From the NCBI GenBank assembly GCA_963716175.1, contig OY970296.1, forward strand, positions 928,001 through 992,000: a stretch of DNA of 64,000 nucleotides, read 5' to 3'. Below the pieces are notes generated by a model, which was not told where the DNA came from, did no database searches, and saw only the letters and a list, made by a program, of their open reading frames with translations. Positions 41,529 through 45,757 of the stretch are shown piece after piece (the first letter of the stretch is position 1; each line of letters begins with the position of its first letter). This stretch comes from an uncultured Armatimonadetes bacterium. GTDB lineage: Bacteria; Armatimonadota; Hebobacteria; Hebobacterales; Hebobacteraceae. The translations under genes were made by a program, and so were the position numbers.

Positions 41529-41831
41529 GTGATCCGCTGTGGCTGCGGCCATCGCGTAGTTCGCCGGGATGTGCTGCAGACCGGGCTTTACCTCAGCGTG
41601 CTAGGGCCCAACTACGTCTACGTGCGTTTCCGCTGCGGCCGCTGCAAGCGTATCGGCGAGCAACTGGTGCAGGAGCGCGATTGGGATCCGTCGGTGCTAC
41701 GTGAGTCTGGGATCCAACCCGCTCCGCCCGACCTGCAGCGCTTCGACCAGCTCGGTGAGATCACCCCGGAGGAAGTGATCGCATTCCACTACGCGCTGGA
41801 GCATCTCGGCGCCGAGCCGGAGGAAGCGTAG
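41529..41831 (+). CDS. small zinc-ribbon-like hypothetical protein
   Basis: CxCG and CxxC pairs; coding-like codon bias. Confidence 0.7.
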   Translation: MIRCGCGHRVVRRDVLQTGLYLSVLGPNYVYVRFRCGRCKRIGEQLVQERDWDPSVLRESGIQPAPPDLQRFDQLGEITPEEVIAFHYALEHLGAEPEEA

Positions 41832-43046: not shown

Positions 43047-43778
43047 TCACCGCCCCAGGGCCAGCCGATCAATCAGGTACTGCGGCAGGCCCGCCAACTG
43101 CATCCTCGCCTGCACCGATTCGATGTCGTAGTCAACGCGGTGAATCTCGATGGTTCCGGCCTCGCTGTCGTAGGTGCCAAAGCTCGCCCTCGGGTTGTTG
43201 TCACGCGGCTGCCCCACGGCCCCGGGATTCACGATGTAGCGCAGCTCGGGCTCCTGCTCGATCTCCCCGCCCGACCAGAGGGAGAACCGCTCGCAGAGGC
43301 GGCTCTCTTTCCTGCTGCGGTAGTACTCGGCGATATGGGTGTGCCCCACGAAGCAGAGCGCCCCCTTGAATTCGGCGAAAACGGCCGCCGCGTCCTCCTC
43401 CGTGGTGATGTAGTCCATTGGCTCCGGCAGCGCTCCGTGCACCAGCACTGCCCCCGCCACCTCCCGCTTCAGTTCGAGCCCGGCGAGGTAGTCTCGATTC
43501 TCGGGCGAGAGCTGCCGGCTGGTCCACTCAATCGCCTGCCGGGCGAACGGGTTGAACCAGTTGAGGTCATACTTGTCAATGGCCGCCAGGTCATGGTTCC
43601 CGGCGATACAGGTGAGGCGAGGGAGTCCCCGCAGCCGCTCGACACAGGCCCCTGGATCGGGGCCATAGCCCACGATATCCCCCAGGCAGAGATAGGCCTC
43701 CACCCCGGCCAGTTCAGCTAGGACTGCCTCCAAGGCGTCAAGGTTCGCGTGGATGTCGGAGATTACACCGTAGGTCAT
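43047..43778 (-). CDS. metallophosphoesterase (YfcE/PrpA-like)
   Basis: SDIHAN, GDIVGYG, GNHD, GHTH and NPGAVGQPRD motifs. Confidence 0.93.
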   Translation of the reverse strand: MTYGVISDIHANLDALEAVLAELAGVEAYLCLGDIVGYGPDPGACVERLRGLPRLTCIAGNHDLAAIDKYDLNWFNPFARQAIEWTSRQLSPENRDYLAGLELKREVAGAVLVHGALPEPMDYITTEEDAAAVFAEFKGALCFVGHTHIAEYYRSRKESRLCERFSLWSGGEIEQEPELRYIVNPGAVGQPRDNNPRASFGTYDSEAGTIEIHRVDYDIESVQARMQLAGLPQYLIDRLALGR

Positions 43779-43804
43779 GGCACAGGGCGGACAGCGATGC
43801 CGGT

Positions 43805-43833
43805 ATTCTAGGGAGTGCACCGGGCCTTGTCAA
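43805..43833 (-). promoter_or_regulatory. sigma70 promoter TTGACA-17-TAGAAT
   Basis: Consensus spacing, upstream of the metallophosphoesterase gene. Confidence 0.75.
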
Positions 43834-43902
43834 GCGACGGCGCGTCCTTCGCTCTCGGCGCACCTCGGCCGCCCGCTCCGCGCCACCATGGCCGGAGCGC
43901 GC

Positions 43903-45000
43903 TCAGGCCTCGCCCAATCGCGCCTTCGCCACCGCCACCAGCTCTGAGGCCGAGGTCGCGTCCTGTGGATAGGCCGCGACCGCACACTCCAGCCTGGTCG
44001 CGGAGTCGCCGTTCTGGAACCGCCGACAGACCTGTGCCGCTTCCCGGAGCGGCAAGCTGAAGATCAGGGCAAGCTCGCTCGGGCCCGCCCGGAACACGTG
44101 GTCTAACACCCGCACCAGCTGATAGATGCGCTTGGCCGCTTGCGAGAGCGCGGCCGGAGTAACCGGACCGGATTCGCCATCGGGCCGCACCACCGCCAAA
44201 CTGAGCGGCGCCCGCAGCGCCTGTGCGCGGCCAATCTCGCGGTGCAGGCTGCGCTCCAGATGCTCCGGGCCGAACAACCCGGTCTCGATATCCACCACCG
44301 AGGCCACCGCCACCCAGGGCCGCGGCCCCGCCGGCGCGATCAGCCGGTCCTCCTCCTTCTGGATGTCCACCAGCAGCGCGCGAATCCGCTCTAACGCCCG
44401 CCGCAGGATGCGAGAGATACGGCTGGTGCTACGCGCCACCACCCGCGCCACCTCCCGCTGCGTCAGGTCATCATAGAAGAAGTGCTTCACGATCTGCCGT
44501 TCCAGGGAAGGCAGACGGCTGATGAGGCTCTCTGCCACCACCCGGTCCACCACCTGAACCGTGAAGTCTTCGTCCCCATCCACCAGCGCCTCCAGCGAAT
44601 CCGGGCTGGTCAGCTCCTCCCCCTCTCGCCCGCCAGGCCCCGGCCGCCAGAGCTCGCCCTCATCTGCCCCGAGCTGCTCCCGGCGCGCCTGGCCCAACAA
44701 GCGCCTTCGTTCCCGCAGGTAGTTCTTGATCGTGCCTGAGACCACCGGATAGGCGTAGGTGGAGAACTGGACTCCGTAGTCGGGCTGAAAGCGTTCGATG
44801 GCGCGGATCAGACCCAGGCAGCCTTCCTGAATGAGATCATCGTGGAGATCGCGGGCCAGCGCCGCGTAGCGATTGGCGATGTGGTACACCAGGCCCATAT
44901 GCCTGAGCACCAGGCGGTTGCGCAGACCAACATCGCGGCTGCGGCGATACTCCCGCCACAACACCGCACTCTCTTGCTGCAGGATTGCTCCGGCTGCCAT
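43903..45000 (-). CDS. sigma-70 family (SigB/F/G-like) factor fused to a degenerate GGDEF domain
   Basis: Region 2 DLIQEG.LGLI.AIERF..YG..FSTYA; region 4 HTH LTQREVA..S.ISR; C-terminal D.ETGLF, RVLD and GPSEL. Confidence 0.85.
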   Translation of the reverse strand: MAAGAILQQESAVLWREYRRSRDVGLRNRLVLRHMGLVYHIANRYAALARDLHDDLIQEGCLGLIRAIERFQPDYGVQFSTYAYPVVSGTIKNYLRERRRLLGQARREQLGADEGELWRPGPGGREGEELTSPDSLEALVDGDEDFTVQVVDRVVAESLISRLPSLERQIVKHFFYDDLTQREVARVVARSTSRISRILRRALERIRALLVDIQKEEDRLIAPAGPRPWVAVASVVDIETGLFGPEHLERSLHREIGRAQALRAPLSLAVVRPDGESGPVTPAALSQAAKRIYQLVRVLDHVFRAGPSELALIFSLPLREAAQVCRRFQNGDSATRLECAVAAYPQDATSASELVAVAKARLGEA

Positions 45001-45187
45001 GGCCCCTGGGCCGGCGATGCGCCGCGGACCAAGCCGCAGCCGCATCGGCGCTCCCAGGGGTTATTCCATAACAGCGCCAGGGGCGGGAGCTTGTCTCGTG
45101 CCACGCTGTGCAGCGGAACCGCACCCTCCCAAAGCACGGAGGAGGGTTTCCCTCCCCCCTCAATATACCAGACCTGTCGCCATCCGC

Positions 45188-45757
45188 TTATGCGTAGCGT
45201 TCTTCTCGCCACGGGTCGGCGCTGTCGCTATACCCCCGCGCCTCCCAATACCCCACTTCCTTCTGATAGGTGAACCGTATCCACCGCACCCACTTCGCGC
45301 TCTTGTAGGCGTACTTCTGCGGCACGACCAGCCGCAGCGGGAAGCCGTGCGCTGGGGTCAACTCCTTGCCATCGAGGCCCCAGGCCAGCAGCACATCTCC
45401 CTCCAGCAGCTCTCCCAGAGACAGGCTGCTGGTATAGCCTGCCTCGCAGCCGATGGTGACGAAGTGCGCCCGTTCCGTGGGAGAGACCAGATCGCAGATT
45501 TCGGAGAAGCGCACTCCCTCCCAGGCGCAGTCGAGCCGGCTCCACCCAGTGACGCAGTGGAAATCGGAGGTGTCAATCACCGCCGGCAGCGCGCGCACCT
45601 CCTGGTAGCTGAGGCGGCGCGGCGCCCGCACCTCGCCCTCTATGCGCAGATCCCAGGTGGACGCATCAAAGCGCGGCACCGGCCCCACGTGCAGTACCGG
45701 CAAAGAGTCAACCGCATGTTGCCCCGGAGGGACTCTTGGCTTCTCTTCCCTTGTCAT
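45188..45757 (-). CDS. sulfite oxidase-like molybdopterin oxidoreductase (YuiH-like)
   Basis: PPGQ, DFHCVTGWS, HGFPLRL, YKSAKW and GYWE.RGY motifs. Confidence 0.92.
   Translation of the reverse strand: MTREEKPRVPPGQHAVDSLPVLHVGPVPRFDASTWDLRIEGEVRAPRRLSYQEVRALPAVIDTSDFHCVTGWSRLDCAWEGVRFSEICDLVSPTERAHFVTIGCEAGYTSSLSLGELLEGDVLLAWGLDGKELTPAHGFPLRLVVPQKYAYKSAKWVRWIRFTYQKEVGYWEARGYSDSADPWREERYA

Follow-up and report, generated by a model that had tools for sequence, protein, structure and literature searches.

The second messenger cyclic di-guanosine monophosphate (c-di-GMP) reaches transcription through repressors, activators, riboswitches and one pair formed by an anti-sigma and a sigma factor, RsiG-WhiG. 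Here we describe a gene of an uncultured Armatimonadetes bacterium that encodes a sigma factor fused, in a single chain, to a degenerate GGDEF domain (sigma-dGGDEF), and that may bring a c-di-GMP receptor of its own to the promoter. The gene lies in a stretch of 64,000 nucleotides (contig OY970296.1, positions 928,001 to 992,000), referred to below as the window, and all coordinates without a further label are those of the window. The closest described systems are the receptors built on degenerate GGDEF domains, the RsiG-WhiG pair and the sigma factors with a regulator fused at their C-terminus.

PopA of Caulobacter is reportedly a degenerate GGDEF receptor that binds c-di-GMP at an RxxD inhibitory site (I-site). 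Receptors of the PelD (Pseudomonas aeruginosa) and PopA kind share with the window domain the GGDEF fold, a dead active site and the conservation of RxxD. Their output, however, is polysaccharide synthesis or protein degradation by means of other domains, whereas the window domain is attached to a sigma factor and, compared with them, is shortened, bears a loop deletion and has neither the β-hairpin insert nor the C-terminal helix. PMC7288161 states that domains of this degenerate kind serve as receptors of c-di-GMP through RxxD, and gives PelD as an example.

In Streptomyces and Rubrobacter, the RsiG-(c-di-GMP)-sigma-WhiG complex places a group-3 sigma factor under post-translational control by c-di-GMP, according to PMC10118264 and PMC8325347. 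Comparisons of the sigma part of the window protein, by fold as well as by family, include WhiG among their matches. In the RsiG-WhiG system, however, the ligand sits on a coiled-coil anti-sigma factor (PMC10118264), which is a separate protein, as the preliminary description of this DNA had also stated, and a sensor domain is absent from the sigma factor, while in the window there is no adjacent anti-sigma gene and the putative sensor is placed in the sigma chain itself by way of a GGDEF I-site. Regulators fused in cis at the C-terminus occur in sigma factors of the extracytoplasmic function (ECF) type, namely ECF41, ECF42, ECF44/CorE, ECF56 and others (PMC8999054, PMC3426412 and PMC7826278). 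These proteins and the window protein have in common a sigma factor with regions 2 and 4 and an in-cis regulator, putative in the window protein, that replaces the separate anti-sigma factor. They differ in that the former belong to the ECF clade and carry SnoaL-like, tetratricopeptide repeat or Cys-rich extensions, whereas the latter is matched best by SigB/F/WhiG models and its extension is a GGDEF domain; no GGDEF extension is mentioned for the ECF group in the titles and abstracts of those papers. The window protein is probably not a member of the PelD-type, RsiG-WhiG or ECF-extension systems. Searches of the full-text literature, subscription journals and supplementary domain-architecture tables excluded, returned no description of a sigma factor fused to GGDEF, in keeping with the preliminary description, whose author did not recognize the architecture as a described one.

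A sigma factor and a GGDEF-like domain in one chain

The gene and its parts are given below, with residues numbered according to the longest open reading frame (ORF).

43903..45045, reverse strand: sigma-dGGDEF gene, longest ORF, 380 amino acids
44701..44913, reverse strand: Sigma-70 region 2, residues 45-115; Pfam PF04542, 1.1e-19
44533..44700, reverse strand: linker replacing region 3, residues 116-171; variable and acidic, about 55 residues, with a predicted local distance difference test (pLDDT) below 50 in AlphaFold2
44380..44532, reverse strand: Sigma-70 region 4 with helix-turn-helix, residues 172-222; PF04545, 1.4e-11 (at 175-222), and PF08281, 2.3e-6
44299..44379, reverse strand: connecting helix and flexible linker from region 4 to the GGDEF-like domain, residues 223-249
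43906..44298, reverse strand: degenerate, shortened GGDEF domain, residues 250-380, by profile and fold

Translation confirmed the coordinates of these parts and the codons of the motifs RVLD and GPSEL, and every string by which the domain had first been noticed (D.ETGLF, L.REI.RA, PLSLAVV, RVLD-HVFRA-GPSEL and AVAAYPQDA) is present in the translated ORF. Met16, encoded by the ATG at 45000, is the start in at least 30 homologues of the protein alignment; the true gene is therefore probably 43903..45000, with 365 amino acids, which are the bounds first proposed. The sequence AGGGG is located a little 5′ of this ATG. The gene is confirmed as a real, single-frame fusion of a sigma factor and a degenerate GGDEF domain.

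In the sigma part, regions 2 and 4 had been called SigB/F-like, and the short linker between them had been taken as a reduced region 3. Both points hold. Apart from the Pfam matches listed above, the best subfamily models of NCBIfam are SigF, SigBFG and WhiG, each with 97-115 bits in two separate stretches and far under its cut-off. TIGR02980 (SigB/SigF/SigG), whose cut-off is 234.35, gives 114.8 bits, again in two stretches, so that the protein falls outside that subfamily, and only the superfamily model TIGR02937 is passed by the 380-residue protein (116 bits against 42.9). No match of this protein to the Pfam family of region 3 (PF04539) was obtained, even at E ≤ 10, and the linker of about 55 residues found in its place includes the conserved patches GEEL..P..LE and DF..V. 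The core-binding and −10 recognition motifs of region 2, DLIQEGCLGLIRAIERF and FSTYAYPV, are nearly invariant in the alignment of relatives. Considering the scores of the NCBIfam models and the joining of regions 2 and 4 by a variable linker, the sigma part is best described as descending from group 3 (SigB/F/WhiG) and as arranged in the manner of ECF factors, with no other regions than 2 and 4. Towards the GGDEF-like domain, AlphaFold2 predicts a helix at residues 209-236, followed by a segment with pLDDT below 50 at 241-247.

The assignment of the C-terminus to the GGDEF fold was based on profiles and on predicted structure. The single sequence, searched with phmmer against the PDB, reaches the GGDEF entry 6d9m at 0.002. 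A profile made from the alignment of eight C-domains, those of the window and of seven genome loci (alignment A2), finds the solved cyclases 6d9m at 1e-11, DosC (4zve) at 1.7e-8, TpbB (7a7e) at 4.4e-6 and PleD at 6.6e-4, and collects 12900 proteins at E ≤ 1e-3 in a library of 1.84 billion proteins. One of the relatives, P0042, carries a precomputed match to the Pfam GGDEF family (PF00990). The AlphaFold2 model of the C-domain has a pLDDT of 84.2 and a predicted template modelling score (pTM) of 0.79; when it was compared with the PDB by Foldseek, GGDEF domains were the only ones among the matches listed, with query-normalized template modelling scores (TMq) of 0.64-0.77, and the full-length model added to them the sigma factors SigS, SigB and WhiG. 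The architecture suggested by the preliminary description is thus recovered, regions 2 and 4 by Pfam and the GGDEF-like domain by family profile and fold, and the possibility raised there that the C-terminus might not be a GGDEF fold is at variance with profile E-values of 1e-11 to 6.6e-4 and with the TMq values.

The fusion recurs in relatives. A first protein search gave about 45 relatives with more than 90% coverage of the query and 45-98% identity, and the next matches were plain sigma factors with about 32% identity and 58% coverage. Residue counts given below refer to 42 aligned full-length relatives with 43-78% identity (alignment A1). At the level of DNA, a contig of 1436 nucleotides from an independent sediment metagenome run covers positions 43895-45200 with 28 substitutions, its single indel lying 5′ of the gene. 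The existence of 42 full-length relatives at such identities, together with an independent contig that crosses the junction with no frame-breaking indel, argues for purifying selection on the fusion and answers the earlier concern that it might be absent from reads or relatives. The protein is encoded at nine genome loci, all of them in metagenome-assembled genomes (MAGs) of Armatimonadota type. In two of these, L006 and L008, the gene is broken, either split by a frameshift or cut by the contig end.

At L006:10028-11130, in a MAG with a complete chromosome, and at L008:967-2020, on a 2-kb contig, two ORFs are found, with the break near the junction of sigma and GGDEF parts. Assembly frameshifts are the more likely cause of these splits, rather than real ones.

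Strong matches to the C-domain profile (E ≤ 1e-39) are present in the source genome (G000) and, within its GTDB family, in nine of the other 14 genomes. Of 286 genomes sampled outside the family none has one, the best value there being 1.4e-17. The family members with no strong match are G083, G251, G058, G169 and G272, whose completeness is 92, 84, 96, 95 and 55%, respectively.

Catalytic and inhibitory sites of the GGDEF-like domain

The residues on which the proposed function depends are as follows.

44101..44112, reverse strand: RVLD, the RxxD motif of the I-site with R312 and D315, residues 312-315; followed by HVFRA and then by GPSEL
44071..44085, reverse strand: GPSEL, degenerate counterpart of GG(D/E)EF, residues 321-325
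44020..44022, reverse strand: R342, equivalent of PleD R390 and of the Arg of the 'AERI' helix in 6d9m; third primary I-site residue
44227..44229, reverse strand: R273, in helix α1; positional equivalent of PleD R313, the arginine that comes from the neighbouring GGDEF domain

The catalytic site was compared with that of the five canonical GGDEF domains of the source genome. Where these have GGDEF, AGDEF or GGDEL, the window domain has GPSEL, and even this motif drifts: only 22 of the 42 relatives have P at position 322, and position 323 is occupied by 12 different residues. The column of the metal-binding Asp holds Arg in 35 of 42. Seven to eight residues are deleted where all five canonical domains have D.D..K..ND..GH..GD, the metal- and guanine-binding loop, and the window domain ends ahead of the AD.ALY.AK..GRN helix, the C-terminal phosphate-binding helix of the canonical domains. 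In ten sigma-GGDEF fusions the motif reads GPSEL, GGDEI, SGWTI, RRWVL, GDREF, DQQTF, DKREF or RGTRF. The degeneracy first noticed in the GPSEL motif extends to the loop, the metal-binding column and the C-terminal helix. By these residues the substrate and metal site is destroyed, and the domain, which does not qualify as an active cyclase, is predicted to be catalytically dead.

The I-site, by contrast with the drift or deletion of the catalytic residues, is kept. In PleD it is built by RxxD (R359 and D362) and R390 of the same domain and by R313 of an adjacent GGDEF domain, and it binds an intercalated dimer of c-di-GMP (PMC7288161). In the window family R312 and D315 are each found in 41 of 42 relatives, the sole exception being P0044, which has a deletion at the site, whereas R342 is present in 42/42 and R273 in 39/42. 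In the HMMER alignment with 6d9m, R342 is placed 18 residues past the F of GGDEF and R273 14 residues ahead of the metal-binding Asp column. These offsets are presumably those of R390 and R313 in PleD. Across ten sigma-GGDEF fusions, with identities down to 26%, the invariant residues are D252, L257, R312, D315, R319, R342, L369 and A373. The preliminary description had pointed to an RxxD that precedes the GGDEF position by five residues and that is conserved in the homologues, and the two further I-site arginines, R342 and R273, add to that claim. Judged by these alignments, all four residues of the c-di-GMP inhibitory site are retained.

We lean, with moderate confidence, towards an alternative sigma factor that descends from the SigB/F/WhiG line and still functions, with regions 2 and 4 intact and region 3 shrunk to a linker, and whose dead C-terminal GGDEF domain has been kept as a c-di-GMP receptor. 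This agrees with the one-component c-di-GMP-sensing sigma factor proposed in the preliminary description, of which all points open to sequence analysis were upheld. In the model, an intercalated c-di-GMP dimer would bind R312, D315 and R342. The bound ligand would then cross-link the GGDEF domain to a second arginine-bearing surface, as it does in product-inhibited cyclases, and this surface would be either R273 of another copy of the protein, resulting in dimerization, or the sigma domains of the same chain, resulting in an in-cis lock. Either cross-link would alter the way in which regions 2 and 4 spread over the RNA polymerase core. As to its direction, inhibition at high c-di-GMP would be the more likely one, a guess made by analogy with the immobilization of cyclases and with RsiG-WhiG.

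Several observations weigh against a receptor function for the domain: (i) the single sequence stays under the threshold of the Pfam GGDEF family, with 13.2 bits against 23.8 and an E-value of 0.079; (ii) the full-length AlphaFold2 model is poor at region 4 (pLDDT below 50 at 181-207), with a pTM of 0.49, and is uninformative on interdomain docking; (iii) R342 and R273 were mapped onto R390 and R313 indirectly, through their distances from motifs aligned with 6d9m; (iv) RxxD is present in five of five canonical GGDEF domains of the genome, and I-site residues are, for GGDEF domains at large, among those best kept; (v) the whole strand VRVLDHVFRAG is conserved, beyond the I-site residues, so that part of the I-site conservation could be structural, and (vi) the promoter-like motif TRTGGAATAA found 5′ of the gene, treated in the next section, is enriched also in G058, G169, G083 and G251, which do not have this gene (10-14 copies, against 0-2 for the reversed-pattern control).

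The alternative that survives best, which we nevertheless consider unlikely, is that the dead GGDEF domain works independently of any ligand as a protein-protein module, either for constitutive dimerization or for docking of an active diguanylate cyclase, a metallophosphoesterase or an anti-sigma factor, the conserved Arg and Asp residues serving the interface. GGDEF domains do function as dimers, and the conservation of the entire β2-β3 stretch, beyond the I-site residues, would suit an interface; the conserved set, however, coincides exactly with the four residues by which the c-di-GMP site is defined, and subfamilies with different neighbours show no variation in it. The candidate partner, on which the preliminary description had not remarked, is encoded nearby, on the same strand and downstream of the sigma gene:

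43047..43820, reverse strand: metallophosphoesterase (Metallophos_2); Pfam 4.5e-18, and PDB 3rqz, uncharacterised, 1.9e-56
43805..43833, reverse strand: near-consensus housekeeping-type promoter TTGACA-17-TAGAAT, 11/12 matches, driving the metallophosphoesterase

A metallophosphoesterase gene is situated directly 3′ of the sigma gene in the window and in five of nine related loci (L002, L003, L004, L005 and L007), which speaks for such a partnership. Against it, the gene is displaced in L001 and L006 and was not found in L009 (the sequence of L008 ends too early), and it has its own promoter, conserved in the window and in the same five loci. On account of this intervening promoter a single operon of both genes was rejected, and the two are considered separate transcription units. 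The metallophosphoesterase probably starts at the ATG at 43778, since the GTG called at 43820 overlaps with the −10 element.

Much less is to be expected from the proposal that the domain, at the I-site or at a remnant of the active site (A-site), senses another nucleotide, be it GTP, as the degenerate GGDEF domain of Caulobacter CC3396 does, (p)ppGpp or another cyclic dinucleotide. Its best sequence match, 6d9m, is a GGDEF protein of Geobacter, which we take to be of the hybrid type that makes cGAMP. Structures of PleD with ppGpp and pppGpp exist (9g85 and 9g86, by their entry titles), and binding of GTP or hydrolysis of ATP by degenerate GGDEF domains is on record (PMC7288161). The deletion of the guanine-binding Asn/Asp segment, the replacement of the metal Asp by Arg and the lack of the C-terminal Lys/Arg helix nonetheless make an A-site ligand unlikely, and the residues that are kept are those of the c-di-GMP site. 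Hardly probable is also that the C-domain is an evolutionary remnant with a structural or stabilizing role in an ordinary alternative sigma factor controlled by its own transcription only, since, although a conserved promoter motif of alternative type precedes the gene and its subfamily is narrow (one GTDB family) and already devoid of region 3 and of parts of GGDEF, the C-domain is as conserved as the sigma part (mean column identity 59% in A2 versus 54% for the whole protein in A1), it exhibits invariant Arg and Asp residues of surface type, and loss of the I-site would be expected alongside that of the A-site.

Promoter motif, neighbours and c-di-GMP network

The receptor proposed for the sigma-dGGDEF protein would operate in an organism that, by its domain content, possesses both c-di-GMP synthases and HD-GYP hydrolases. 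The source genome (4.56 Mb in a single contig, 90.85% complete) encodes eight GGDEF domains of Pfam grade, ten HD_5 domains (HD-GYP type), no EAL domain and one PilZ domain. With no EAL and a single PilZ, most c-di-GMP receptors of the organism must be of other kinds.

A promoter-like motif precedes the gene:

45061..45070, reverse strand: TATGGAATAA, promoter-like motif, 5′ of the sigma-dGGDEF gene

The form T(A/G)TGGAATAA is found 5′ of the sigma-dGGDEF gene in eight of the eight loci examined, and in six of eight orthologous loci it is accompanied, 16-17 nucleotides farther upstream, by CATCTCA, which is absent from the window. The gene appears to be monocistronic, transcribed from its own promoter of TRTGGAATAA type. 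The hairpins that flank it were considered as terminators and discarded, because they show no advantage in folding over shuffled sequence (z −0.95 and −1.30).

TRTGGAATAA occurs 21 times in the genome, where base composition alone predicts about 2.4 copies and the reversed pattern is absent, and 19 of the 21 sites are intergenic by crude gene calls in a genome that is 83% coding. We take the motif to resemble the −10 element GGGWAW known from promoters of SigB type, or else a −10 element of the extended kind; among the genome's 30 TGGAATAA sites no −35 element was found. Apart from the sigma-dGGDEF gene, the motif precedes a pilin-like gene next to a sigma-GGDEF paralogue of 474 amino acids, genes for a 533-residue GGDEF protein, for a GGDEF + HD-GYP protein and for an HD-GYP protein, and two response-regulator genes (sites include G000:C1 3270313, 1449456, 1451376, 1454650, 2852181, 3189733, 4034165 and 4503009). 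The presence of the same motif ahead of pilin, cyclase, HD-GYP and response-regulator genes would place the sigma-dGGDEF gene, transcriptionally, inside the c-di-GMP network. In the segment G000:C1:1449456-1456266, 5.2 kb contain three TGTGGAATAA sites, ahead of two paralogues of about 600 residues and of the 533-residue GGDEF protein. The two paralogues have the N-terminal motif PVGFGRGR.TNRIVV in common, and a further GGDEF domain is encoded at 1454083-1454538.

All 15 genomes of the family are enriched in TRTGGAATAA, with 7-21 copies and 0-2 for the reversed control. Autoregulation through the motif was rejected as a simple reading, given the equal enrichment in the four family members devoid of the gene. 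The enrichment in these genomes makes the gene a target of the motif-reading factor and not evidently its reader. Another candidate for reading the motif is the plain SigB/F factor encoded within 3372073-3373686 of the source genome.

As the preliminary description had noted, no anti-sigma gene is adjacent to the sigma-dGGDEF gene, and there is no STAS or RsbW-type match within the window. The only STAS match of the genome and its best RsbW-type (HATPase_c_2) match are found at G000 3372073-3372788, 2.4 Mb off, beside the gene of the plain SigB/F factor. An RsiG-like gene was not seen among the neighbours scanned, a genome-wide search for RsiG homologues not having been made.

The locus G000:C1:3372073-3373686, on the forward strand, holds the sole canonical partner-switching set, an operon composed of STAS, an RsbW-like kinase and SigB/F in a row, the latter with 286.7 bits, over the cut-off of TIGR02980.

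The neighbours of the sigma-dGGDEF gene encode an MsrP-like molybdoenzyme, a URO-D-like protein, a protein with a carbohydrate-binding module, the metallophosphoesterase, CdsA, a protein of 100 residues, PurM and PurF; the MsrP-like gene is upstream and on the same strand. The protein of 100 residues, at 41529..41831 on the forward strand, is Cys-rich (CGC...CGRC) and belongs to no Pfam or NCBIfam family. It is also found beside purM in L003, L004 and L005, with 60-67% identity.

A second sigma-GGDEF paralogue

The source genome encodes a second sigma-GGDEF protein, an ORF of 474 amino acids on the reverse strand at G000:C1:3270409-3271833 (L081:1410-2834). It contains regions 2, 3 and 4 (region 3 at 7.7e-13), and its GGDEF domain passes the Pfam threshold (6.3e-23) and is itself degenerate, with the motif LRGTRF and with RSID as its RxxD. 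The window protein aligns with it colinearly over the whole length, with 27% identity and an E-value of 5e-37. The gene directly follows a PilC/T2SSF gene and comes before the pilin-like gene, which is itself preceded by CATCTCA-N17-TGGAATAAG.

Of 121 genomes sampled from the phylum, 120 gave some match when the 474-residue paralogue was the query. In at least 74 of the 121 genomes (counted over 150 of 428 match rows) the match extends from the sigma part past residue 400, which indicates a fused protein. The pilus-linked type, of 420-490 residues, and the window type thus have the same architecture and the same invariant I-site residues, and both are present in the source genome. They differ in that the former has region 3, a full-length GGDEF domain of Pfam grade and a PilC/pilin neighbourhood and extends phylum-wide in Armatimonadota, whereas the latter is without region 3, has a truncated domain, is located between MsrP-like and metallophosphoesterase genes and is confined to its own GTDB family. 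From this difference in distribution, the window gene is best seen as a derived, family-restricted paralogue that has lost region 3 and part of GGDEF and has kept the I-site. A quick tree of 67 GGDEF domains, 17 of them sigma-fused and 50 others, clusters 13 of the 17 fused ones and leaves 35 of 64 inner branches open; so poorly resolved, it neither shows nor excludes a single origin of the fusion.

The abundance of TRTGGAATAA was also compared with the presence of the fused pilus-type paralogue. Five genomes with the paralogue have motif counts, relative to the control, of 20/1, 17/3, 15/3, 9/4 and 3/3, and five genomes without it have 1/0, 1/0, 16/7, 15/12 and 17/8. A link between motif and pilus-type paralogue is a trend only, and is offered as a lead.

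A further proposal, speculative and in our opinion rather doubtful, is a two-tier cascade in Armatimonadota, with c-di-GMP sensed directly by a sigma factor in each tier, in which the pilus-linked factor would read TRTGGAATAA promoters, that of the sigma-dGGDEF gene included, and the product of this gene would read c-di-GMP again for a further regulon. The pair of paralogues hints at such a sigma cascade within a c-di-GMP network that has one PilZ protein, and two paralogues of differing domain completeness in one genome constitute a natural comparison. Since the sigma-dGGDEF protein is a small, soluble one with a predicted ligand site of four residues, the idea that it carries a receptor is directly testable. 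If the proposal of a two-tier cascade is true, its factors would provide the first case of a second messenger bound by sigma factors that have no anti-sigma partner. A sigma factor with its own c-di-GMP receptor would represent the shortest path from the messenger to the choice of promoter, and a new class of one-component regulators.

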